Below are positions 18,329 through 54,317 of a stretch of 64,000 nt of DNA, piece by piece. This DNA comes from a candidate division FCPU426 bacterium. GTDB lineage: Bacteria; Oederibacteriota; Muellerivitia; Muellerivitales; Muellerivitaceae. The stretch lies in NCBI GenBank assembly GCA_030041545.1, contig JASHNQ010000059.1, positions 16,222 through 80,221 on the forward strand, given 5' to 3'. The notes under the pieces were generated by a model. The model did no database searches, was not told where the DNA came from, and saw only the letters and a program-made list of their open reading frames with translations. Made by a program: the position numbers and the translations under genes. Numbering within the stretch: the first letter of the stretch is position 1; every line of letters starts with the position of its first letter.

Positions 18329-18404
<76 letters not shown>

Positions 18405-18460: not shown

Positions 18461-18537
18461 CGGGGCGTGGCGCAGCCCGGTAGCGCAGTTGCATGGGGTG
18501 CAAAAGGTCGCAGGTTCAAATCCTGCCGCCCCGACCA
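18461..18537 (+). tRNA. tRNA-Pro (anticodon GGG)
   Basis: Acceptor CGGGGCG/CGCCCCG, anticodon loop ATGGGGT, T arm GCAGG-TTCAAAT-CCTGC, encoded CCA. One mismatch at the top of the anticodon stem. Confidence 0.8.
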
Positions 18538-20615: not shown

Positions 20616-20692
20616 GGCCCTCGTAGCTCAGTTGGATAGAGCGACCCTTTCCTAAAGGGTAGGTCACGCGTTCGATTCGCGTCGAGGGTACC
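20616..20692 (+). tRNA. tRNA-Arg (anticodon CCT)
   Basis: Acceptor GCCCTCG/CGAGGGT (G1-U72 wobble), D arm GCTC-AGTTGGATA-GAGC, anticodon loop TTCCTAA, T arm ACGCG-TTCGATT-CGCGT, encoded CCA. Confidence 0.8.
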
Positions 20693-20790
20693 ATTCGGAT
20701 GAGGCCTTCCCAATCCGGGAAGGCTTCGATTTCCAGGCATTGTTCAAAGGCGTTCTTCGCCAGAAACCCGTGCCTTCACAAGGACTTTGA

Positions 20791-23174: not shown

Positions 23175-24200
23175 CTAGCGGTTCAAAGCCCGGTGGCGTT
23201 TCAGGAGCAAGGAACTCCAGGAATAATCCTCCAATCTCAGGTGATGAAGCTTGCCACCATCCCCAAAAGCCTTTTGGTGGGCGGATCGGGCCTTGGTGGA
23301 GGCCAGCTTCACGTAGTTTTCACTGACCATGATGCTGGAATGGCCCATCAAGTCCCGTATTTCATAAACGCTGGCGCCCGATTCGGCTAATTGGGTGCCG
23401 AAGGAATGCCGTAACACGTGCACGGTCAGTTCGTCCGGGTTTTCCAAGTGGGCCCACTTTGCCGCTTTCTTGACCCATGACTCCAGGTAATCCGGATGAA
23501 TGGGTTTTTGGGCGCTTCTTGGACTTGCGAAAAGATAGGGGCTCTGGGGTTTGTCCTGGTTTGCCAAATAACGCTTTAGCAACTCCTTCAAGGTCTCGGT
23601 CATAGGCACGGTGCGTTCCTTGTCGCCCTTACCAATGACTGTGACCAAGCCCTGGGCAAGGTCCAAATCACGGGTCCGCAAATGGGCGATCTCCGAAACC
23701 CTCAAGCCGCAATGGTAGCCTAAAAGGACGGTCAGACTAATTTTTTGACCCTCTAAGTTATCTGTTTGGAGGCTCTTGACTAATGCTTCGCGATCCCGGG
23801 GCGACAAAGGATGGGGGTTTCTCTGGGGGCTTCGGATGGAAAGGTTGTGGAAAACGGCGGTAGGATCGTTGGTGATGTGCTGGGTCGAAGCCAAGAAACG
23901 GTAAAAGGACCGGGTGGAGGCCAGAATGCGTTTCATGGACCGAGTGGAATAAGCGTTCCGGAACTTACCGCTCGGGGTTTTGCCAGCTTTGGTCAAAGAC
24001 CCAGCAAAGCGGACCATATGTTCTGGTTTTGCGCCAGCAGGGCCCAAGATGTCGTTCTGGTCCAGGAATAGCTTTAAAACGCGAAGGTCTTGATGATAAT
24101 TTTCCTTGGTGTGGGAGGATTTGCACAACGCCAGAAAACCATCATAGGGCTTGATTTCCAAAAGATTGAGCGGGTTGGGAGCTTGTGATTGGGGGTTCAT
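23175..24200 (-). CDS. tyrosine-type site-specific recombinase/integrase (XerC/D-like)
   Basis: R...GKGDKERTVP box I and LRHSFGTQLAESGASVYEIRDLMGHSSIMVSENY box II with the catalytic Tyr. The start could instead be 24323. Confidence 0.75.
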   Translation of the reverse strand: MNPQSQAPNPLNLLEIKPYDGFLALCKSSHTKENYHQDLRVLKLFLDQNDILGPAGAKPEHMVRFAGSLTKAGKTPSGKFRNAYSTRSMKRILASTRSFYRFLASTQHITNDPTAVFHNLSIRSPQRNPHPLSPRDREALVKSLQTDNLEGQKISLTVLLGYHCGLRVSEIAHLRTRDLDLAQGLVTVIGKGDKERTVPMTETLKELLKRYLANQDKPQSPYLFASPRSAQKPIHPDYLESWVKKAAKWAHLENPDELTVHVLRHSFGTQLAESGASVYEIRDLMGHSSIMVSENYVKLASTKARSAHQKAFGDGGKLHHLRLEDYSWSSLLLKRHRALNR

Positions 24201-24424
24201 AAACTCGGTATAACTGTAATTATACCAAGTTTTGGAACCGAATGGGAAGAGAATTATTTTTGTATTTTTTTCCGCAGACAGTGCAGACCAGGTTTTCTTC
24301 GTAATAACCTCTTCTAGGTCCACCCATAGGGTCCTCTCAACTGGCGATTTTGCATTTGAAGGCGGTTTTTTTCGACGATCATACGGCGAGGTAAGCCGTC
24401 ATATTCCGTCGAACGGCGCTTTTT

Positions 24425-36217: not shown

Positions 36218-36820
36218 ATGAAAACAGCACCTAAAATCTCTATCCCCAAAACCCTTTTCCAAAAGGGCGTCCTGCGTCCCCGCGACATCCTCCAACAAGG
36301 GATCAGCCGGATGCGCCTGAAAAGGCTGGTGGACCAAGGCGTCCTAGTGCGTGAGGCGCGGGGGGTATACCGCGTTCCCGGCCATGAACCTTCCGAAAAG
36401 GAAAGCCTCGTCCAGGCCTGCGAAAGAGTGCCGGGCGGCATTCTTTGCCTGCTGACGGCGCTCCAATTCCATGGCATGACAACCCAATTCCCCCATGAAA
36501 TCTGGATGGCGATTGACGTGTGGGCCCGCAAGCCCCATGCGGAACATCTTCCCATCCGTTTTGTCCGTGCTTCCGGCAAATCCCTCGCTTCCGAGGTGGA
36601 GGAACACACCGTCCAAGGCGGGCGCATCCGGGTTTATAGCGCGGCGAAAACAGTTGCCGATTGCTTCAAGTACCGGAACAAGATCGGCCTGGACGTGGCG
36701 CTGGAAGCCCTGAAAGCCTTCCAAACCGGCCACAAAGGAAAGATGGATGATCTTTGGAGGAGCGCCCGCGTTTGCCGCGTGTCAAATATCATCCGGCCTT
36801 ATTTGGAGGCCCTGGCTTGA
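36218..36820 (+). CDS. abiEi: AbiEi family antitoxin (type IV TA / abortive infection)
   Basis: N-terminal wHTH region (GISRMRLKRLVDQGVLVREARGVYRV) and C-terminal conserved domain typical of AbiEi_4. Confidence 0.8.
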   Translation: MKTAPKISIPKTLFQKGVLRPRDILQQGISRMRLKRLVDQGVLVREARGVYRVPGHEPSEKESLVQACERVPGGILCLLTALQFHGMTTQFPHEIWMAIDVWARKPHAEHLPIRFVRASGKSLASEVEEHTVQGGRIRVYSAAKTVADCFKYRNKIGLDVALEALKAFQTGHKGKMDDLWRSARVCRVSNIIRPYLEALA

Positions 36821-37685
36821 AGAAAAAAAAAAGATCAAAAACCTCCCAGCTTCTGTGCGTCAGCGGCTCTATAACATCTCCAAAACTCGCAAGGAGGAAT
36901 TCGAATATGTCCTCACACGGTACGCCCTGGAAAGGTTCCTTTACCGCCTGGGCCGGTCAGTCCACCAAAAGAGGTTCGTTTTGAAAGGGGCCATGCTTTT
37001 CCAAGCCTGGTCACCCGAGATCCACCGTATGACCAGGGATTTGGACCTCCTGGATTCCAACAACCATGAAGCCCAAAAGGTCGTCCATGCTATCCGGGAA
37101 GTGTTGAATTCAAAAGTCCCAGATGACGGATTGGTTTTCAACGGTAAGTCGATTAAGTGGGGAGCCATCCGGCAGGGGCAAGCCTATCATGGGGTCCGCC
37201 TTCACTTTAAGGCCAAATTGACCCCGGCGGTCATCCCCCTCCAAGTAGATGTGGGTTTCGGCGACGCGATTGTGCCAAAGCCCAAGCGCATCCGTTACCC
37301 GACCCTTTTGGGTTTCCCATCCCCACATGTCCTGGCTTATGCCAAAGAAACCGTGGTCGCGGAAAAGCTCCATGCCATCGTGCTACTGGGCATGACGAAC
37401 AGCCGCTTGAAGGATTACTTCGACCTGTCGGTGCTCCTGAAAGGCGAAACCCTCGACGCCGACATGCTGGCCCAAGCGATTAAGGCAACGTTCAAGCGCC
37501 GCAGCATGCCCGTTCCCGCCGAACTGCCGATCGGTCTCACGGACGAATTCTCGCACGATCCATCGCAACAGGCGCTATGGCGTGCGTTCGTCAAGAGGAA
37601 CGGACTCGACCTCGAACCTTTGGCCGCCGTCGTGGAGCGACTGCGGACGGCCTTGGGACCGGCATTGAGCCGGGCCGGTCTATGA
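36747..37685 (+). CDS. abiEii: nucleotidyltransferase AbiEii/AbiGii toxin family protein
   Basis: NLPASVRQRLYN...YALERFLYRL N-terminal signature. DLD(L)LD NTase-like motif. First ATG overlaps abiEi by 74 nt; the true start may be a non-ATG codon nearer 36820. Confidence 0.8.
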   Translation: MIFGGAPAFAACQISSGLIWRPWLEEKKKIKNLPASVRQRLYNISKTRKEEFEYVLTRYALERFLYRLGRSVHQKRFVLKGAMLFQAWSPEIHRMTRDLDLLDSNNHEAQKVVHAIREVLNSKVPDDGLVFNGKSIKWGAIRQGQAYHGVRLHFKAKLTPAVIPLQVDVGFGDAIVPKPKRIRYPTLLGFPSPHVLAYAKETVVAEKLHAIVLLGMTNSRLKDYFDLSVLLKGETLDADMLAQAIKATFKRRSMPVPAELPIGLTDEFSHDPSQQALWRAFVKRNGLDLEPLAAVVERLRTALGPALSRAGL

Positions 37686-40600
37686 CAACCGCTTCTTTCG
37701 TATCCATTGACCTGGAAGTCGGCCGCGACAGCGGACGCATCCACCAGTTGGCTGGGGTACATAGCAATGGCATCGCCTCCCTTGCCTTTCCGCCCGGTAC
37801 GCTGTCTGATGCGCTTGATGCCTTGGATCGCCTCGCCGACGGCGCTACATTTGTTATCGGGCACAACCTGATCGCCTTCGACTTGCCGCAGTTGCGCGCG
37901 GCCCAGCCCAATCTGCGGCTACTGGATAAACCCGCGGTTGATACGCTACGCCTCAATCCCCTAGCCTTCCCGCGAAACCCCTACCACCACCTCGTCAAGC
38001 ACTACCAGGACGGCGCCTTGCTCGGCAACCGCCGCAATAATCCATTTTTGGACGCTGAACTCGCCTTGCAAGTCTTTGCCGACCAACACGCCAGCCTGAA
38101 AGCGATGCAGCACACCATGCCCGACTTGTTGCTCGCGTGGCATTGGCTGACAGCCCAGAATGACGGTGTTGGCGGATTTGATCGCTTCTTTACCGAAGTT
38201 CGCGGCACCGGCAAGCCGGATGCGGCACAGGTTGGGGCTGCATTTAGCCGTTTGCTGGACAACACGGCCTGCACACGAGCCAGTGCAAAAATCATCTCCG
38301 AAGCGGCGCAATCCCCCTGGTCTTTGGCCTATGCACTCGCCTGGATATCCGTGGCGGGGGGTAATTCGGTGGTGTCGCCGTGGGTGCGTCACCAGTTCCC
38401 TGAAACTGGACGGTTGATCCGGGCCCTGCGCGACACGCCCTGCGCCGATCCGGCCTGCGCCTGGTGCCGACGCGAACACGACTCTCTGGCCCAGTTGAAG
38501 CAGTGGTACGGCAAGGATTACGACTTTCGCTCCGAGCCGGTGGATAAGTCCAGCGGCCTGCCCTTGCAGCGGGTGATCGTCGAAGCGGCAATTCGCGGCG
38601 AGCACGCGTTAGGCATTTTGCCCACCGGCACCGGTAAGTCGCTGTGTTACCAGGTGCCCGCCCTGTCGCGTTTCGTGCGCACCGGAGCGTTGTCCATCGT
38701 CATCTCGCCATTGGTGGCGCTGATGGAAGACCAAGTAATGGGACTCCGCGAGCGCGGCATCGAAGGCTGCGCGGCGATCAACGGCCTGTTGTCCATGCCC
38801 GAGCGCGCGGACGTGCTGGACCGGGCACGCCTGGGTGATGTCGGCATCCTCCTCATCGCGCCGGAGCAGTTGCGCAACAAGAGCGTGCGAAAAGTTCTGG
38901 CACAGCGCGAGATCGGCGCTTGGATTTTCGACGAGGCCCACTGCCTGTCTAAGTGGGGACAGGATTTTCGCCCCGATTACCGTTATGTCGCCCGCTTCAT
39001 TCGTGAAAGCGCCGAGGCCAGTCCAAGCGGCGAACTGCCGCTGATCCAATGCCTGACCGCCACTGCCAAGCCCGAGGTCGTGGCCGACATCGTGGGCCAC
39101 TTCCGCGAAAGACTTGGTGTGGAGCTGCGCGTGTTCGACGGCGGATCGAAGCGTGACAACCTCGAATTCGATGTGATCGAAACCACCCCCGGCCAAAAAT
39201 TCGACCAAGTCGCCCACCTGATCGAGCGCGACTTGCCCGCCGGAATGTTCGGCGGGGCCATCGTTTACTGCGCCACGCGCAACCGGACGGAAGACCTGGC
39301 CGGTTTTCTGTGCGAAAAAGGGATGGCTGCCGCCCCTTACCACGCGAAATTGAAACCGGAAACCAAGAAGGAGACGCAGAAAGCATTCATTATGGGTACG
39401 CTACGCGTCATCGCGGCGACCAATGCTTTCGGCATGGGGATCGACAAGCCCGACGTGCGTCTTGTCGTCCATGCCGACATTCCCGGCTCGCTGGAAAATT
39501 ATTTGCAGGAGGCAGGCCGCGCCGGGCGTGACCGCGCACAGGCGCGCTGCGTGCTGCTCTACGCCCCCGATGACGTAGAGCGCCAGCACGGCATGTCGGC
39601 GGCCTCTCGCCTGTCGCGGCGCGACATCCAGAGCGTACTGCGCGCCTTGCGCCAGTTGCAGCGCAAGAAGGAACGCGATCAGGCGCTGGTCGCCACTGCC
39701 GGTGAAATCCTGAACGAGAATGAAGAAGGCGAGTTCAAACGCGACGGTGCCACCGACGACACCCGCGTGCGCACAGCCGTCGCGTGGCTGGAGGAAGCCG
39801 GATTGTTGCGCCGCGAGGAAAACACGGTTCAAATCTTCCCTTCGTCGCTCCGTGTCAAAAACCTGGCCGACGCTGAGCGCAAGCTGGCGGGCGTCGATGC
39901 CATATACCGCCAGAAATGCCTGGACCTGGTCCAAATCCTGTTGGCCGCCCCAGCGAATGAAGGACTGTCCACCGACGAACTAATGGCAGCCACCGGCCTT
40001 CATGCCGATGCCCTGCGCGAAACCCTGTTCCTTTTCGACCGCCTGGACATTGCCGGCAACGACACGGCGATGACCGCCTACGTCCACGTCGCGGTCGAAA
40101 ATTCGTCGAAGAAACGTTTTGACGAAGCCTGCGCGTTGGAGCAGGCCGTGATCGCCGCCCTACGGGAAGAAGCACCCGACCTCGGGGCGGGCGACGCCTC
40201 GCCGTTGCACCTGCGCCTGCTGGCCCAGCGGCTGAAAGACCAGGGCTTTCCTGCGCTGCCCCAACGGCTGCGCCAGGTCATCGCTGGGCTGGCGGGTGAC
40301 GGTCGCGACGGCGAGGATGGCAAGGGAAGCCTTACCTTGAAGCGCGGTGCCGATCCCGAGACGATTCATGTCACGCTCAACCGTCCATGGAACACTCTGG
40401 AAAAGATTGCCGAGCGTCGCCGCAGCGCCGCCCGAAGGCTGCTGGAGCATTGGCTGTCCGCCCTGCCGCAAGGTGCACGCGGCGTCGATCAACTGGCGGA
40501 AACCACGCTCGGCAAACTAACCGCCAGCGTCGCGGGCGATGCCATCCTCTCCGCCGAAACCCCGGACATACGCAAGCTAGTCGATCGGGCTCTGCTATGG

Positions 40601-42778
40601 CTGCACGAGCAGGAAGTGCTACGCCTGAACAAGGGGCTGGCCATCTTTCGCGCCGCAATGACTTTACATCTGGAACCCAACTGGAAGTTGCAATTTGAAA
40701 AAAACAACTACCAGCCACTGGCCATGCACTACGACGAACTGACCCGGCAAATCCACATCATGGCGGAATACGCCGAGCTTGGCGTCAAGAAAATGGCCGA
40801 TGCTCTGCGCCTGGCGGTGGACTATTTCCGCCTGTCACGCGAGGAGTTTTGTCGGCGATGGCTGCCGGGCCGCGAAGACGAACTAACCCGCCAGACCACG
40901 CCCCAGTCCTGGGACACCATCGTCGAAACCCTGTCCCGACCTCACCAACGCAGGATCGTCGCCGATGACCGGGAGGACACCAACGTGCTGGTGCTTGCCG
41001 GACCCGGCTCGGGCAAGACCCGCGTGCTCGTCCACCGCATCGCCTACCTAGTGCGTATACGCCGCGAAAACCCCCGGGCCATTCTGGCCCTGGCCTACAA
41101 CCGCCATGCGGCGCTGGAGATCCGCAAGCGATTGATAGAACTCATCGGCGGCGACGCACGCGGCGTCACTGTGCACACCTGCCACGGACTGGCCATGCGC
41201 CTGATGGGTGCGAGCTTTGCAAATCGCAGAGGCGAGGATGCCGACTTCGACGCCGTTCTGAAGGAGGCAACAGCCCTGCTCGAAGGCCACGGCTTGCCGC
41301 CGGAAGATGCCGACGTTCAGCGCGACCGCCTGCTGGCGGGTTTTCGCTGGATATTGGTGGACGAGTACCAGGATATCGACCCCGGCCAGTACGCGCTGAT
41401 CTCGGCGCTGGCTGGGCGCAAGCGCAACGACGAGGATGGACGCCTCAACCTGTTCGCGGTGGGCGATGACGATCAGAACATCTACGCTTTTGCGGGTGCC
41501 TCGGTAGAGTTCATCCGCCGCTTTACCGAGGACTACAAGGCCAAAACGGAACTCCTGGTCGAAAACTACCGCAGCACACGCCACATCATCGACGCCGCCA
41601 ACCGCGTGATAATCCGTGCTGCGTCGCGGATGAAGACTGAAGCGATCCGAGTAAACACCGCCCGCGCCCAATGCGCGCCTGGCGGCGATTGGCAACGGAT
41701 CGACCCTGTGGTACAGGGCCGCGTACAGATACTCCCCACTGGCAACAGCGCGCAACAGCAGGCACTGGCCATCTACACCGAACTGCGGCGCATGATGGCG
41801 CTTGGCCTCGATCCAGCCAAAACGGCGGTCATCGCCCGCCAGTGGAAATTCCTCGATCCCCTGCGCGCGGCGCTGGAAGCCGCCGATATCCCCGTCGCTA
41901 TGGCCGATGAAGAGGCGCCACTCCTGTGGCGTTTACGCGAAACGCAGGCGCTGCTGGCTTTTCTCGATGAACGGCAAACAGCTTCCGGCTCCCGGTTGCT
42001 CAAAGCGGATGACCTTCAATCCTGGCTGGCAACGCAGGACAGCACGGGCTGGTGGCCCATGCTCAGCGAAGCCATAGCCGCCTTTGCCGAGGACACCCAG
42101 GGTGCGGAAGTATTGCTTGCCTCCTTCCGCGACTGGTTGGCCGAATGGGGCCGCGCTAGCCGCCGCCTGCAAACCGGCATCCTGCTTCTGACCGCGCACC
42201 GCGCTAAAGGGCTGGAGTTCGACCATGTGTTCATTCTTGACGGCGAATGGCAGGCCGGCAAGAACGAGGATCAGGATGGGGCGCGACGCCTCTATTACGT
42301 CGCCATGACCCGCGCCCGCGCCACCCTGGCGCTGGCGCGCATGAATACGGGGAATGCCATGCTCGATGGCCTGGCTGATCATCCTGCCCTGTTGCGCCGT
42401 CCTCTAACGCAATGGTTGCCACCCCCCGGACCAATGGAACGCTATTATCGGATGCCCGGACTGGAAGAGATCAACCTCGGTTTCGCGGGTCGGCAGGACG
42501 TAGGCCACCGGGTGCACCGCGCCATCGCCAGCCTACGCATTGGTGATGCGCTGCGCTACGTCGGGGACGAACTGGGTCATCGGCTCGAAAACACGTCCGG
42601 CGTGACCGTCGGGCGCTTGTCGAAAAATTTCGAACCGCCGCCCGGATTGCGTTGCCAAGCGGCTCGGGTGCGCGCCATTCTGGTCTGGCGCAAATCTGAC
42701 AGCGCGCCGGAATATCAGGCCCAATGCCGCAGTGAAACTTGGGAAGTCGTTCTGCCGGAACTGGTTTTCGCACCTTGA
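37682..42778 (+). CDS. fusion protein: DnaQ-like 3'-5' exonuclease + RecQ-family helicase + UvrD/PcrA-family helicase (WRN-like with extra SF1 helicase)
   Basis: ATG overlaps the abiEii stop (ATGA at 37682-37685). Exo motifs FVSIDLEV and GHNLIAFDLPQL. RecQ motifs ILPTGTGKSLCYQVPAL, DEAHCLSKWGQDFRPDY, LTATA, HADIPGSLENYLQEAGRAGRD. UvrD motifs LAGPGSGKTRVLVHRIAYLV, ILVDEYQDIDP, VGDDDQNIYAFAG, ENYRST, LLTAHRAKGLEFDHVFI, YYVAMTRAR. Confidence 0.85.
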   Translation: MTTASFVSIDLEVGRDSGRIHQLAGVHSNGIASLAFPPGTLSDALDALDRLADGATFVIGHNLIAFDLPQLRAAQPNLRLLDKPAVDTLRLNPLAFPRNPYHHLVKHYQDGALLGNRRNNPFLDAELALQVFADQHASLKAMQHTMPDLLLAWHWLTAQNDGVGGFDRFFTEVRGTGKPDAAQVGAAFSRLLDNTACTRASAKIISEAAQSPWSLAYALAWISVAGGNSVVSPWVRHQFPETGRLIRALRDTPCADPACAWCRREHDSLAQLKQWYGKDYDFRSEPVDKSSGLPLQRVIVEAAIRGEHALGILPTGTGKSLCYQVPALSRFVRTGALSIVISPLVALMEDQVMGLRERGIEGCAAINGLLSMPERADVLDRARLGDVGILLIAPEQLRNKSVRKVLAQREIGAWIFDEAHCLSKWGQDFRPDYRYVARFIRESAEASPSGELPLIQCLTATAKPEVVADIVGHFRERLGVELRVFDGGSKRDNLEFDVIETTPGQKFDQVAHLIERDLPAGMFGGAIVYCATRNRTEDLAGFLCEKGMAAAPYHAKLKPETKKETQKAFIMGTLRVIAATNAFGMGIDKPDVRLVVHADIPGSLENYLQEAGRAGRDRAQARCVLLYAPDDVERQHGMSAASRLSRRDIQSVLRALRQLQRKKERDQALVATAGEILNENEEGEFKRDGATDDTRVRTAVAWLEEAGLLRREENTVQIFPSSLRVKNLADAERKLAGVDAIYRQKCLDLVQILLAAPANEGLSTDELMAATGLHADALRETLFLFDRLDIAGNDTAMTAYVHVAVENSSKKRFDEACALEQAVIAALREEAPDLGAGDASPLHLRLLAQRLKDQGFPALPQRLRQVIAGLAGDGRDGEDGKGSLTLKRGADPETIHVTLNRPWNTLEKIAERRRSAARRLLEHWLSALPQGARGVDQLAETTLGKLTASVAGDAILSAETPDIRKLVDRALLWLHEQEVLRLNKGLAIFRAAMTLHLEPNWKLQFEKNNYQPLAMHYDELTRQIHIMAEYAELGVKKMADALRLAVDYFRLSREEFCRRWLPGREDELTRQTTPQSWDTIVETLSRPHQRRIVADDREDTNVLVLAGPGSGKTRVLVHRIAYLVRIRRENPRAILALAYNRHAALEIRKRLIELIGGDARGVTVHTCHGLAMRLMGASFANRRGEDADFDAVLKEATALLEGHGLPPEDADVQRDRLLAGFRWILVDEYQDIDPGQYALISALAGRKRNDEDGRLNLFAVGDDDQNIYAFAGASVEFIRRFTEDYKAKTELLVENYRSTRHIIDAANRVIIRAASRMKTEAIRVNTARAQCAPGGDWQRIDPVVQGRVQILPTGNSAQQQALAIYTELRRMMALGLDPAKTAVIARQWKFLDPLRAALEAADIPVAMADEEAPLLWRLRETQALLAFLDERQTASGSRLLKADDLQSWLATQDSTGWWPMLSEAIAAFAEDTQGAEVLLASFRDWLAEWGRASRRLQTGILLLTAHRAKGLEFDHVFILDGEWQAGKNEDQDGARRLYYVAMTRARATLALARMNTGNAMLDGLADHPALLRRPLTQWLPPPGPMERYYRMPGLEEINLGFAGRQDVGHRVHRAIASLRIGDALRYVGDELGHRLENTSGVTVGRLSKNFEPPPGLRCQAARVRAILVWRKSDSAPEYQAQCRSETWEVVLPELVFAP

Positions 42779-42828
42779 TCGGCGGTGCACAAGTCGCACG
42801 AAATTAACCTGACTTTCGCAACTAAAGA

Positions 42829-42912
42829 GTGTGACCAAATAGGTTTTTTGGCATGCCCGTGGGGCGATTAAGGAAAAGCCAAGGATGAAAACGGCTAAAT
42901 ACTTTTTCATAA
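42829..42912 (-). pseudogene. orphan duplicate of the signal-peptide coding segment of the downstream Thr/Pro-rich protein gene
   Basis: About 84 nt with about 90% identity to 43651-43733. Encodes MKKYLAVFILGFSLIAPRACQKTYLVT against MKKYLAVFILGFSLTAPWACKRTYLVT. Downstream reading frame is antisense to the helicase 3' end. Confidence 0.45.
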
Positions 42913-42940
42913 TGGAATGGCCCTATCGGGAGGGCCTGGC

Positions 42941-43732
42941 TTATACGGAAATGGCGGAAGAACCCACCTGCCATTGGACCGGCAGGTTCATCAGTGGCAC
43001 GACGACGGCCACGTACCCGTACGGTATTAGGGGTGCGGGAGTCGAGGTTAGCTCAGAGTAAACCAAAAAAACACTAACTGTCACTTGGGTGGCGTTCCAA
43101 CAAACGCTCAAAACTCCGACGCCAGTGGTGGGGTTGGTCGGAGGCTCGTATACAAGAACCATTTGGGTGGAAAAATCCACGGCCGGGGGCGTGGAGGACC
43201 CATAAATCGACTGCCAGGCGGCTTGATTGGTAATGACCAGGGTCGTTCCTGAAACTGGTTGACCGGGCGCAATGGGGACAAAGTCACCGGCGGTGAGGGG
43301 GGCGTAAGGGACGTTCCAAGTGGGCATGGAGACCGACGTGAATCCGCAATTGGTGGCGATCGGGGTGAAGGTAACTGTTGGTGTGGAAGTCGTCGTAGGC
43401 GTATTGGTCCAAGTGGGGGTAGGGGTGGGTGGGACCTGGGTATTGGTCGGCGAGGGAGTCGGGGTGGCGGTGGAAGTAAAGCTTGGTGTAAAAGTGGAAA
43501 GGGTGGAAGGCGTAAAGGTGGGCGTGGAAGTGGGCGTGGGCGATGGCGCGGCCGTTATTGAAGTCGTCAGGAAATAATAAGTGTAAATGGGGGAAGGCGA
43601 AAAACTAGGCGTGGGCGATGGTGTGGCCGCCATTGAAGTCGGCGACAGGGGTGTGACCAAATAGGTTCTTTTGCATGCCCATGGTGCGGTTAAGGAAAAG
43701 CCAAGGATGAAGACGGCTAAATATTTTTTCAT
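42941..43732 (-). CDS. secreted Thr/Pro-rich repetitive protein
   Basis: Signal peptide, long TPTPT/STPT low-complexity linker, beta-rich C-terminal domain. Confidence 0.55.
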   Translation of the reverse strand: MKKYLAVFILGFSLTAPWACKRTYLVTPLSPTSMAATPSPTPSFSPSPIYTYYFLTTSITAAPSPTPTSTPTFTPSTLSTFTPSFTSTATPTPSPTNTQVPPTPTPTWTNTPTTTSTPTVTFTPIATNCGFTSVSMPTWNVPYAPLTAGDFVPIAPGQPVSGTTLVITNQAAWQSIYGSSTPPAVDFSTQMVLVYEPPTNPTTGVGVLSVCWNATQVTVSVFLVYSELTSTPAPLIPYGYVAVVVPLMNLPVQWQVGSSAISV

Positions 43733-44004
43733 ATCGGCATCCTGCGCTGAGACATACATTTTTAAGCTTATAGACGGTCGTGTCAAGTTCGGCCGCGATC
43801 CATGGAGTCCACGACCAGCTATCGAACCTAAAAAAACGCAATTTCAGGGCCTTTGTATCATTAAACTTCCATCGCTTTCGCTTACGCCTTTTCCGGCTGG
43901 AACCAGCTGAGTACACAAAGTAAGTCGAAAATGTCTTGAAAAAGAATTCGGTTTACTTCGTGGTCTTCGTGTACTTCGTGGTGAGAGAGGTTTTGAAACA
44001 GGTT

Positions 44005-44460
44005 CTAGTCTTTCCATCGGTTCCCCAGGTACCGGCATCCCCCGGGCCATTGGTTAGCCAATCCTTCCAGGATTTCCGCTTTCACGTCCGGGGTAACCGA
44101 CATTCCTCCAAAGTCCTTCAGCGGATGGAAGGCGGCGCTCTTTAAAATCGCGTCGGGCGTCACATGGATGTTGAAATGGCGCGCGGAAACCAGGAAATAA
44201 AGGTTCAATACCTGCCGGTGGCGGTTGGGCGGAATGGAATCGTGAGCCAGAACCAGTTTCCCGACCTGGATGGGGAGGCCCACTTCCTCCCGGAATTCCC
44301 GGATGAGGGCCTCCTCCACGCTTTCGCCGAAATCAACGCCGCCACCAGGAAGAAGCCAATAACTTTTGCCATTTTTTTCGTGGCGGACAAGCAGGATTTC
44401 CCCGTCTTTGACGAGGATTCCCGCGGCGCGGATGCGGATATTTTGCAAAAAATCCTCCAT
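44005..44460 (-). CDS. NUDIX hydrolase
   Basis: NUDIX box GGGVDFGESVEEALIREFREEVGL. Confidence 0.75.
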   Translation of the reverse strand: MEDFLQNIRIRAAGILVKDGEILLVRHEKNGKSYWLLPGGGVDFGESVEEALIREFREEVGLPIQVGKLVLAHDSIPPNRHRQVLNLYFLVSARHFNIHVTPDAILKSAAFHPLKDFGGMSVTPDVKAEILEGLANQWPGGCRYLGNRWKD

Positions 44461-44559
44461 CCGCCAGGCTGTCGGCGGATGCCCTCCGAAGCCTTGGCGA
44501 AGGAGGGCAAAAAGGCCCCACAGGCTATGCCCGTGGGGCTCCATTGAAAATTCAGGTTG

Positions 44560-52508: not shown

Positions 52509-54317
52509 TTATTTTTTCAACGCGTATACCAGCACGCTGCAGTTGGCGATGTCCGTCACGAAAAGGTTGTTCTCCGCGTCCAGGGTGACGCCGTAATACT
52601 TGGGGGCGGTGCGGTAATTGCCTTGGGGCGTTCCGAACTCGGTCAAATAATACCCCTCCGGGTCGAAAACTTGGATGCGCATGTCCCGGTCGGTCACGAA
52701 GATGTTGCGCTTGGAATCCACCGCCACGCCGATGGGCGCGGCGAACTCGCCCCTCCCTGACCCCCTTTTGCCGAACTTGTTCTTGAAGACGCCCCGGTAG
52801 GTGAAGACCTGGACCCGGTAGTTCTTCTCGTCCACCACCAGCAGGTTCTGGGCGCTGTCGGTGGTCAGGCCCGTCGGGCAGTTGAACTCGCCCAGCCGCG
52901 CGCCCTGGATGCCAAACTTGTTGATCACCTTCCCGGCGGAATTGAAGACCCGGATGCGGTGGTTGCCCGTATCCGAGACGTAGATGTTGTCCTTTTCGTC
53001 CAAGGCCAGGGCTTGGGGGTGGAAAAACCCCCCTGTCCCGATCTCAATTTTACCCGTTGTGGGCGAGGCAGGCTCGCCAAATTTCGCCAAAAGTTGCCCC
53101 ATTTTTCCGATAATTTGGACATTGCAGGTCTTGGCGTCCAAAACCACCAGGTTCCCCCCCTGGTCCACGGCCAGTGAAACCGGCATCAAGAAGGAGATTT
53201 CCTTGGGGTCCTGCACCTCCTTCCCGAATTTGCCCACGGAATAAAGGAATTTGCCGTCAAAATCAAAAACCTGTATGTTGCACTTGAGGGAATCGCAGAC
53301 GTAAATGCGTTTCTGTGAGTCCACGGCCACAGCCAGGGGCGAGATGAAGTTGCCGTCTTCCTTGCCCCGAGTCCCGATGGCTTTGATGAGCTTGTAATGG
53401 TAGCCCTGGTACCGCAGGGTGTTGATGTCCCCCGGATCCTTGGCCGCCTCTTTCTTGGTTTCCTCTTGAATGATGGTGTGGGTCAAAACCTCCTGGGTTT
53501 TACTGCCGATGCCAATAGGGGCGTCTAATACCTTGAGCGGCAGATTTTCCAGGTCGGCTTTCATCTCATTGGCCGTCTGATAACGTTTAGAGACTTCTTT
53601 TTGCAACGCTTTCATGATGACGGCTTCCAGTTCCTTGGGCAAATTGGCGTTTAACTTGTGGGGTTCGGTGACGTCATCCTTGAGGATCTTGTTAAGGACC
53701 ACCATGGGGACCTCATCGTAAAAGGGAAGCTTACCCGTCACCATTTCGTACAGGATGACCCCTACCGAATAAACATCCGAGGCCTTGGCCGGGTGCCCCA
53801 GCACCTGTTCCTTGGCCATGTAGTAAAGGGTGCCCCCAATGCCCGCCCCGTTTTTCCCCGCCTGGATGACGGCCGTGCCGAAATCGGTGATTTTGGCTTT
53901 TCGGTCGGAGGTCAGGAGGATATTGCCGGGCTTTAGGTCCCGGTGGATGACATTCTTGTCGTGGGCGTATTGGAGCGCGGAAAGGATTTGGATGACAATA
54001 TCGACGGCTTCCTTGAAAGTGAGGGGGGTTTCCTGGATGAGCTGGGCGAGGTTCTTCCCATCCACGTATTCCATGACCATGAAGAAAATGTTCTCGGCCC
54101 TGTCAACCGTCAGGATTTGGACGATATTGGGATGGTCCAGGGAGGCCAGCAGCTTGGGTTCAGCGATGAGGTTGGTGAACTCTTCTTTTTGGTTGTGGGG
54201 TATTTTGATGGCGACTTTCTTGCCGATCCAGGTGTCCTCGGCCAGCCAGACGGTGCCGAAGGTGCCGCTGCCCTTGATCTCAAGGAGTTTATATTTGTCG
54301 ATATTTCCCTGAAGCAT
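52509..54317 (-). CDS. Ser/Thr protein kinase with C-terminal NHL-repeat beta-propeller
   Basis: Kinase subdomains (GSGTFGTVWLA, VAIK, HRDLKPGNILL, DFGTA). Five or six NHL-like repeats (...NHRIRVFN..., ...YRVQVF..., ...MRIQVFD...). Confidence 0.85.
   Translation of the reverse strand: MLQGNIDKYKLLEIKGSGTFGTVWLAEDTWIGKKVAIKIPHNQKEEFTNLIAEPKLLASLDHPNIVQILTVDRAENIFFMVMEYVDGKNLAQLIQETPLTFKEAVDIVIQILSALQYAHDKNVIHRDLKPGNILLTSDRKAKITDFGTAVIQAGKNGAGIGGTLYYMAKEQVLGHPAKASDVYSVGVILYEMVTGKLPFYDEVPMVVLNKILKDDVTEPHKLNANLPKELEAVIMKALQKEVSKRYQTANEMKADLENLPLKVLDAPIGIGSKTQEVLTHTIIQEETKKEAAKDPGDINTLRYQGYHYKLIKAIGTRGKEDGNFISPLAVAVDSQKRIYVCDSLKCNIQVFDFDGKFLYSVGKFGKEVQDPKEISFLMPVSLAVDQGGNLVVLDAKTCNVQIIGKMGQLLAKFGEPASPTTGKIEIGTGGFFHPQALALDEKDNIYVSDTGNHRIRVFNSAGKVINKFGIQGARLGEFNCPTGLTTDSAQNLLVVDEKNYRVQVFTYRGVFKNKFGKRGSGRGEFAAPIGVAVDSKRNIFVTDRDMRIQVFDPEGYYLTEFGTPQGNYRTAPKYYGVTLDAENNLFVTDIANCSVLVYALKK

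Follow-up and report, generated by a model that had tools for sequence, protein, structure and literature searches.

A widespread bacterial protein family that joins a DEDD exonuclease fold, a RecQ-type helicase and a UvrD-type helicase in one polypeptide

Introduction

Genome stability relies centrally on fusions of an exonuclease with a helicase, such as WRN and the DinG protein of Firmicutes, and on pairs of separate enzymes, among them MrfAB and UvrD with ExoI. The DinG of Staphylococcus aureus is a proven 3'-5' exonuclease-helicase fusion, in which D10, E12, D95, H149 and D154 form the catalytic set of the exonuclease and H90 contacts the phosphate (PMC12345164). The same source describes the DinG helicase as XPD-like, with 5'-3' polarity (PMC12345164). 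In Bacillus subtilis, the superfamily 2 (SF2) 3'-5' helicase MrfA and the DEDDh exonuclease MrfB together excise mitomycin C adducts (PMC12345164). Here we analyse a gene from a candidate division FCPU426 bacterium (assembly GCA_030041545.1), located at 37682..42778 (+) in a 64,000-nucleotide stretch of contig JASHNQ010000059.1 (positions 16,222 to 80,221, forward strand; hereafter the window), whose product carries an exonuclease fold and two helicases of different superfamilies. An earlier reading of the letters alone, to which we refer as the original prediction, had described it as a WRN-like exonuclease-RecQ fusion with an additional C-terminal UvrD helicase. Such a single polypeptide would offer a tractable model of how helicases of two superfamilies cooperate, and of how unwinding is coupled to degradation.

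Results

A single open frame with three enzymatic modules

The open frame extends without interruption from 37577 to 42778 on the + strand. From the ATG at 37682 to the stop codon at 42776-42778 it encodes, by translation of the window, a protein of 1698 aa rather than the 1684 aa first given, in the order exonuclease, RecQ, winged helix (WH), UvrD and C-terminal domain (CTD). The translation matches the deposited NCBI protein P0001 with 100% identity and 100% coverage. All the motifs quoted in the original prediction were found in it: FVSIDLEV (residues 6-13) and GHNLIAFDLPQL (60-71) in the exonuclease; PTGTGKSLCYQ (313-323), DEAHC (416-420), LTATA (458-462) and QEAGRAGRD (609-617) in the RecQ module; and GPGSGKT (1107-1113), VDEYQD (1226-1231), VGDDDQNIYAF (1260-1270), ENYRST (1294-1299), AHRAKGLEFDHVFI (1505-1518) and VAMTRAR (1540-1546) in the UvrD module. 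The Pfam matches of the protein are UvrD-helicase (5.8e-41), DEAD (1.9e-27), AAA_19 (1.4e-25), Helicase_C (1.9e-20) and UvrD_C (1.9e-19), and this set of motifs and domains is far above chance. Motifs and domain models together bear out the presence of three enzymatic modules on a single polypeptide; the Pfam and NCBIfam models confirm both helicases, and the Walker motifs of both motors are intact and conserved in the family. The gene is genuine and conserved, stands alone, and encodes a DNA-processing machine in a single polypeptide.

The fusion is real, obligate and widespread

A frame of this length could have been an assembly or frameshift artefact joining separate recQ and uvrD genes, a possibility that the original prediction had itself raised. 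We found nothing in support of it and consider its probability negligible, because collinear full-length homologues in a single frame exist in many genomes and because the only apparent split proved to be a frameshift. Of the 120 best homologues, about 115 measure 1674-1763 aa, align with 59-84% identity over 97-100% of the query and have the same Pfam set, and such homologues come from hundreds of independent genomes, complete chromosomes and plasmids included. In an alignment of 42 sequences, with N-domains down to ~33% identity, the catalytic motifs of both helicases are at least 90% conserved, and the 450-aa family-specific linker between the helicases is conserved as well. The candidate for a natural split into an exonuclease-RecQ protein and a separate UvrD protein (locus L087, 1062 aa and 638 aa) was rejected, since the homology runs on in another frame. 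A protein of 1087 aa (P0185) ends early inside the UvrD domain, on a 5.4-kb contig. The fusion is obligate: no natural split was found, the one candidate examined being this frameshift. In several loci from long-read metagenome-assembled genomes (MAGs; L008, L026, L036, L040, L054, L075 and L079) the helicase frame is broken into pieces, which could be due to sequencing indels or represent genuine pseudogenes, and many 400-840-aa "fragments" of the middle region probably share this origin.

A pattern scan of one genome per species gave at least 600 stretches, at least 593 of which were confirmed by tblastn, and an exhaustive search with the N-domain gathered 1135 clusters (50% identity) at E<=1e-3, 749 at <=1e-10 and 220 at <=1e-30. 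Among the matches listed, the carriers are Alpha-, Beta- and Gammaproteobacteria, Chloroflexota, Acidobacteriota, Binatia, Poribacteria, Latescibacterota and Nitrospinota, and full-length copies are present on 25 plasmids or megaplasmids. Where annotated, the plasmid copies are named "RecQ family ATP-dependent DNA helicase". A large family is thus hidden behind the label "RecQ family helicase", and because this label is generic, automated annotation counts its members as ordinary recQ. An architecture that had been called very unusual is therefore not so in frequency, with at least 593 species-level genomes, many phyla and 25 plasmids; the phrase holds, in contrast, for what has been characterised. 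No phage record covers at least 80% of the protein, and a phage origin was rejected on this ground, as no full-length phage copy was seen.

Full-length identity between phyla reaches 77-87% (Vicinamibacterales versus Binatia, 87%; Terriglobia versus Alphaproteobacteria, 81%; Poribacteria versus Dehalococcoidia and Nitrospinota versus Gammaproteobacteria, 77% each), which indicates horizontal transfer between phyla, most of the compared records being MAGs. Sequence divergence is unusually slow for a protein of 1700 aa.

Two of the loci deserve a separate description. On the Vicinamibacterales MAG contig CBDCCO010000007.1, two helicase copies that are 100% identical (L028 and L033) are separated by ~0.77 Mb, both within a duplicated stretch (99.9% identity, 15 kb or longer) that includes a repeated 484-aa open reading frame (ORF) without Pfam match; a GmrSD-like restriction gene lies 3.6 kb downstream of the helicase in L028. 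On plasmid pMVF16-5 of Microvirga sp. VF16 (L089, 1173-17374), the helicase gene, a DNA topoisomerase gene and rnhA are found between two transposase genes of the insertion sequence (IS) family IS6, with IS630 copies inside the segment, in an arrangement resembling a composite transposon. The RefSeq coding sequence of this copy starts ~450 nt into the exonuclease domain, so that it may be damaged at its N-terminus.

A DinG-type exonuclease fold with an atypical active site

The N-terminal region comprises a DnaQ/DinG-type DEDD 3'-5' exonuclease fold (residues 1-145; 37682..38116, +) and a helical subdomain (residues 146-268; 38117..38485, +). Residues 1-293 have no Pfam match even at E=10, and no PDB match by single sequence. 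The Pfam model RNase_T (PF00929) does not match the window protein at E<=10 and matches 3 of the 37 members of our N-domain alignment (A1; diverse full-length relatives, 33-73% identity), the best E of 0.043 being below threshold; no Pfam exonuclease model is above threshold in any of the 37. The A1 profile, on the other hand, matches the exonuclease domain of S. aureus DinG (E 2.4e-4) and, more weakly, the proofreading domains of T7 and Pol II polymerases, TREX1-like proteins and Cas2-DEDDh. The AlphaFold model of the domain is confident (predicted local distance difference test, pLDDT, 91.7; predicted template modelling score, pTM, 0.88), and the top structural neighbour is again S. aureus DinG, over 230 residues, which identifies a DEDDh-type fold. 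Because of the profile match to DinG and the confident model, we assign the domain to the DnaQ/DinG type of DEDD fold, distinct from the WRN/RNase D type.

The invariant set consists of D10 and E12 (Exo I), H61-N62...D67 (Exo II), D87-T88-L89 and D124 (Exo III). Counted over 269 family sequences, with a number of covered sequences that differs from residue to residue, the metal-binding carboxylates are near-invariant (D10 219/219, E12 223/223, D67 251/253, D124 262/262), as are H61 (252/252), the equivalent of the substrate-contacting H90 of S. aureus DinG, and D87 and T88 (258/258 each). The fifth catalytic residue behaves differently. In the HMMER alignment, H149 of S. aureus DinG (in AHRADEDA) falls on residue 119, which is Asn in 243 sequences, Ser in 14, Gln in 2 and Pro, Gly or Thr in one each, and His or Tyr in none of 262. 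The general-base His of DEDDh enzymes (H-x4-D, five residues before the Exo III Asp) is accordingly replaced by N119. The original expectation of intact DEDD catalytic residues thus stands for the four acidic residues and falls for the His/Tyr at its canonical position. The loop upstream of N119 is invariant (Y101 and H102, 260/261 each; K106, 261/261) and is also the least confident part of the model (block pLDDT 71-79 for residues 101-120). One might speculate that this Y101-H102...K106 loop replaces the missing general base. With Asn where the catalytic His would be expected, this DEDD site lends itself to a clean test of how plastic active sites in the DnaQ superfamily are.

The helical subdomain has four invariant cysteines, C197, C254, C259 and C262 (spacing C-x56-C-x4-C-x2-C), which probably form a Zn or Fe-S site. 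This Cys4 subdomain is distinct from the RecQ Zn-binding domain, as it lies N-terminal to the motif 0-like FR...Q segment.

Two helicase cores that are paralogous to the housekeeping enzymes

The RecQ-type SF2 core occupies residues 270-635 (38489..39586, +) and comprises the motif 0-like FR...Q (recognised by eye), Walker A GTGKS (K318), DEAHC, SKWGQDFRPDY, TATA and QEAGRAGRD, with Pfam DEAD at residues 294-468 and Helicase_C at 523-617. With 285.5 bits, the core exceeds the cutoff of NCBIfam TIGR00614 (recQ_fam; 219.8), which places it in the RecQ subfamily. Residues ~294-632 align to residues 28-345 of E. coli RecQ (1oyw; 3.1e-59), and the structures of BLM, RECQ1, RECQ5 and WRN match the core at 1e-47 to 1e-52, over the two RecA lobes only. 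The aromatic-rich loop between motifs II and III is kept, SKWGQDFRPDY aligning with the SQWGHDFRPEY-type loop of the bacterial RecQ 4tmu. The RecQ alignment stops just ahead of the Zn-binding subdomain, at residue ~632; downstream of the core the translation contains no cysteine cluster, only the single cysteines C623 and C746, and no Pfam match to RecQ_Zn_bind, RQC or HRDC was found in the protein. The first WH domain after the core matches only generic winged helix-turn-helix (wHTH) folds.

The UvrD/PcrA-type helicase of superfamily 1A (SF1A) occupies residues 1088-1554 (40943..42343, +), with Walker A GPGSGKT (K1112), DEYQD, VGDDDQNIY, NYRS, HRAKGLEF and YVAMTRA. Its membership in SF1A follows from the full motif set and from Pfam UvrD-helicase (141.4 bits, cutoff 23) and UvrD_C (70.7 bits, cutoff 25.6), and the NCBIfam models of AddA and RecB match this motor partially. 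Neither core is a canonical orthologue: the RecQ equivalog models give 330 versus 640 bits (TIGR01389) and 247 versus 1015 (PRK11057), the models of uvrD, pcrA and rep 167 versus 1144, 170 versus 911 and 132 versus 951 bits. No NCBIfam equivalog cutoff is reached, the generic recQ_fam subfamily model being the only one passed. Because both cores score so far under the equivalog cutoffs, they are paralogous modules, other than the housekeeping RecQ, UvrD, PcrA or Rep enzymes.

Between the two motors, residues 636-1087 (39587..40942, +) form about four tandem wHTH domains and a helical bundle that are seen in this family only. The original prediction had placed this region at residues 700-1150, and had guessed rightly at a winged-helix nature, to judge from the AlphaFold model and the fold matches. 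A profile of residues 636-1090 (alignment A2) has no significant sequence similarity to solved structures, and a profile search for the region in other architectures returned only fragments of the same family. In the model, about four helix-helix-helix-hairpin units precede a helical bundle at the end of the region (pLDDT 82, pTM 0.50); with a pTM of only 0.50 despite this pLDDT, the individual domains appear reliable while their predicted mutual arrangement is not.

The protein ends with a conserved domain (residues 1555-1698, alignment A3; 42344..42775, +) with an invariant W1687 and a WEV..PE tail. These 144 aa have no Pfam match and no PDB match by profile.

Genomic context

Directly upstream of the helicase gene, the window contains genes for AbiEi (36218-36820, +) and AbiEii (36747-37685, +), with PADLOC E values of 5.7e-76 and 7.1e-100, that is, a complete pair of AbiEi antitoxin and AbiEii nucleotidyltransferase toxin. 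The TGA of the AbiEii ORF (36747..37685) overlaps the helicase ATG at 37682 by 4 nt (ATGA), and this overlap suggests co-transcription in this genome. The pair is found beside the helicase in none of 80 other loci, unrelated AbiEii genes adjoining it in 2-3 of 37 sampled loci. Peptidase genes lie further upstream; downstream there is a Thr/Pro-rich lipoprotein-like ORF, followed by NUDIX, miaA and mutL genes. The helicase gene has a guanine-plus-cytosine (GC) content of 0.625 versus 0.57 for the window, and its third-position value (GC3, 0.734) falls inside the span seen in core genes.

We clustered the neighbours across the 80 loci (all ORFs of at least 70 aa, chosen greedily without overlap, up to 10 kb on each side). 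No family, the helicase aside, is present in more than 7 loci; those found in up to 7 are explained by synteny that close relatives share or by antisense ORFs, and neither AbiEi, AbiEii nor two flanking unknown ORFs of the window have homologues beside the helicase elsewhere. A conserved operon partner was thus rejected. Most of the 146 immediate neighbours (two upstream and two downstream, 37 loci) are metabolic or housekeeping genes, and a minority match defence models (AbiE, DNA methylases, PDC-M05A). In about 7 of the 37 loci, the helicase has an AbiE gene, a methylase or a PDC candidate no more than two genes away, a raw count without genome-wide background and as such only suggestive. 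Individual loci vary: L001 and L002 have housekeeping neighbours and no defence genes nearby, L003 has a type I restriction-modification system, McrBC and HipA, L004 a type I-D CRISPR system and a WYL protein, L005 two RES toxins and BrnT, and L006 HipA, while in Sulfitobacter IS66 and VapC adjoin the helicase.

LexA-box patterns are equally frequent upstream of and inside the gene (beta/gamma-proteobacterial pattern, 20 versus 14; alpha-proteobacterial, 16 versus 17; Gram-positive/Chloroflexi, 18 versus 20), and SOS regulation was rejected on this basis. When 9-mers were counted in search of a shared upstream motif, nothing emerged beyond GC-rich words and matches due to synteny among closely related Dehalococcoidia.

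At the right edge of the helicase gene we observed a 90-nt direct repeat with 89% identity (42829-42918 and 43651-43740). It corresponds to the upstream sequence and first 34 codons of the Thr/Pro-rich ORF (42941-43786, -), codons that specify a lipoprotein-type signal peptide (MKKYLAVFILGFSL.AP.AC). The orphan copy starts 50 nt past the helicase stop; its ORF (42533-42910, -) is antisense to the 3' end of the helicase gene and shows no further similarity beyond the repeat. This orphan repeat looks like the scar of a rearrangement or insertion. On the other side, 13 kb from the helicase, a tyrosine recombinase gene (Phage_integrase and N-terminal SAM-like domain; 23175-24323, -) lies 2.5 kb from a tRNA-Arg(cct) at 20617-20693, which hints at an integrated element; two tRNA-Pro genes are located at 18329-18404 and 18461-18537. 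An island bounded by the tRNA-Arg was rejected, the 3' end of the tRNA not being repeated elsewhere in the window. The NUDIX hydrolase ORF (44005-44544, -) beside miaA partially matches the PADLOC candidate family PDC-S07 (1.2e-12), probably through generic NUDIX similarity. An unrelated gene at 52509-54317 (-) encodes a eukaryotic-type Ser/Thr protein kinase (Pkinase, 7.2e-53) fused to NHL/beta-propeller repeats.

Discussion

A proposed mechanism and its rivals

Three modules with intact catalytic motifs, and a winged-helix array between the motors, are the basis of the mechanism that we propose. Helicases of the RecQ family and of the UvrD/PcrA/Rep family translocate 3'-to-5', and DEDD nucleases take nucleotides off 3' ends. 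The winged-helix array and the C-terminal domain would hold duplex or branched DNA, and for both motors the loading site would be a nick, a gap, a fork or a 3' single-stranded tail, from which unwinding would proceed. As a 3'-to-5' motor advances, the 3' end of the strand that it tracks falls behind it, and a tethered 3'-5' exonuclease could therefore degrade this trailing end of the unwound strand. The net outcome would be helicase-coupled 3'-to-5' strand excision or resection, by a logic for which UvrD with ExoI/ExoX, MrfA with MrfB, exonuclease-bearing DinG and WRN would be analogues. The least certain step is the physiological role. We tentatively favour an accessory, horizontally acquired genome-maintenance enzyme for lesions, crosslinks or stalled forks, as opposed to a core housekeeping helicase; if so, the family would be a horizontally traded repair module. 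We count in favour of this reading the retained aromatic-rich loop, the constancy of the DEDD tetrad, the obligate fusion, the slow divergence, the lack of a conserved neighbour and of full-length phage copies, and, in the window, a position next to NUDIX, miaA and mutL with a GC3 like that of core genes. We consider it possible, if rather improbable, that the protein amounts to a hitherto unrecognised one-protein pathway, either single-gene immunity against mobile DNA or a self-sufficient machine for strand excision or fork processing that needs neither UvrABC nor MutSL. In both cases the SF2 and SF1A motors would be mechanically coordinated on the one chain and would feed a rewired DEDD exonuclease, in which the Y-H...K loop makes up for the replacement of the general-base His by Asn.

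Several observations speak against excision in repair. N119 stands in the position of the general base, so that the canonical base is missing and the activity of the exonuclease may be low or absent. Two motors that share a polarity cannot translocate together along both strands of one duplex end, which raises the question of how they divide the labour: they might engage separate arms of branched DNA, or protein removal might fall to one and unwinding to the other. The lack of both LexA enrichment and a common upstream motif leaves no tie to the damage response. In the literature on RecQ, UvrD and DEDD fusions we found no paper on this fusion and no biochemical or genetic study of its members; the family, present in databases under a generic name, appears uncharacterised. 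Finally, its patchy distribution, driven by horizontal transfer, fits a conflict system at least as well, as does its frequent closeness to toxin-antitoxin, restriction-modification and CRISPR genes and to IS elements.

These last points lead to a rival role, that of a single-gene defence against phages and plasmids, which would recognise, unwind and degrade foreign ends or replication intermediates as RecBCD, Gabija, Nhi or Hna do, and would spread horizontally. The transfer deduced from the inter-phylum identity over ~1700 aa, the 25 plasmids and megaplasmids, the mobile surroundings (IS6 in Microvirga, IS66 with VapC in Sulfitobacter, the duplicated segment in the Vicinamibacterales MAG), the defence or toxin-antitoxin genes within 10 kb in the window and in L003 to L006, the ~7 of 37 sampled loci with such candidates within two genes, and the best PADLOC matches of the cores, DpdF/PsyrT and GajB, are all consistent with it. 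However, these matches concern generic helicase cores and no full-length PADLOC model; the immediate neighbours are mostly housekeeping or metabolic, L001 and L002 being devoid of nearby defence genes; and the proximity counts come without a genome-wide background. Defence proteins are typically far less conserved than this family, and there is no obvious toxic effector beyond the possibly weakened exonuclease. A defence role, which would add a new one-gene system, seems to us rather unlikely, and we place repair or fork processing slightly ahead of it because of the strong conservation, the mostly ordinary neighbours and the lack of a distinct toxic effector. A little less probable again, and compatible with either role, is that the N-domain is a non-catalytic pseudo-exonuclease, a 3'-end or metal-dependent DNA-binding or sensing module in a dual-helicase remodeller. 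The constant lack of His or Tyr at position 119, the failure of Pfam exonuclease models in the 37 members, the low confidence of the Y101/H102 loop, and the presence among the structural neighbours of Exuperantia (rank 13) and Maelstrom, which we take to be DEDD-fold proteins without canonical exonuclease residues, would all agree with this. On the other hand, the four carboxylates, H61 and the DTL motif are essentially invariant, which is hard to explain without catalysis, and a substitute for the missing base could come from Y101, H102 and K106, which are invariant; pseudo-nucleases usually lose their metal-binding residues, whereas the DEDD tetrad is kept here.

Comparison with known systems

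The likeness to WRN that the original prediction had put forward holds for the domain order, a 3'-5' exonuclease followed by a RecQ-family core, and for the homology of this core (E about 1e-49 to WRN helicase structures). It does not extend to the exonuclease, which is not of the WRN DEDDy type (RNase D/Pol A-exo branch, Y-x3-D), nor to the RQC and HRDC domains that follow the helicase core in WRN and are lacking here. "WRN-like" is thus an analogy of domain order with a eukaryotic protein and not a kinship of the fusion. E. coli RecQ shares all SF2 motifs and the aromatic-rich loop, but it has the Zn-binding subdomain, RQC and HRDC, none of which is recognisable in our protein, itself ~2.8x the length of the 591-position recQ model. 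The full SF1A motif set is common to UvrD, PcrA and Rep, whereas here the helicase is fused to other modules and followed by a different, 144-aa C-terminal domain.

Among the systems proposed for defence, DpdF (1.6e-108), PsyrT/RqlH (2.2e-84) and GajB (7.8e-53) are the best PADLOC v2 matches of the two cores, and RQC and HRDC are absent from the RecQ core, as they are from PsyrT and DpdF. The alignments with Dpd, PsyrTA and Gabija are confined to the generic ATPase cores, no full-length PADLOC model matches, and the partner genes (dpd cluster, PsyrA, GajA) are neither adjacent in the window nor conserved across the 80 loci, so that the protein is not a member of these systems. RecBCD, AddAB and AdnAB are likewise multi-motor helicase-nucleases with a UvrD-like SF1A motor, but they are multi-subunit enzymes with RecB-family (PD-D/ExK) nucleases, as against a DEDD exonuclease on a single chain. 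The motors of RecBCD have opposite polarities, while the two motors of our protein, which belong to different superfamilies, have the same polarity and are carried on one chain.

UvrD acts with ExoI or ExoX in mismatch-repair excision in E. coli by the same logic, a 3'-5' helicase unwinding and a 3'-5' exonuclease degrading. MrfA with MrfB, likened by function only, is the closest functional analogy for a repair role; these are two separate proteins, with a helicase that is not RecQ-type and no UvrD module. Exonuclease-bearing DinG of S. aureus and B. subtilis has the canonical H149 where our protein has N119, and lacks the Cys4 helical subdomain and the winged-helix array; here the exonuclease is partnered by a RecQ-type motor and a second, UvrD-type one. 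The protein is of a known kind, the helicase-nuclease fusion, and its closest characterised relatives are exonuclease-bearing DinG for the N-domain and, for the cores only, the RecQ and UvrD families.

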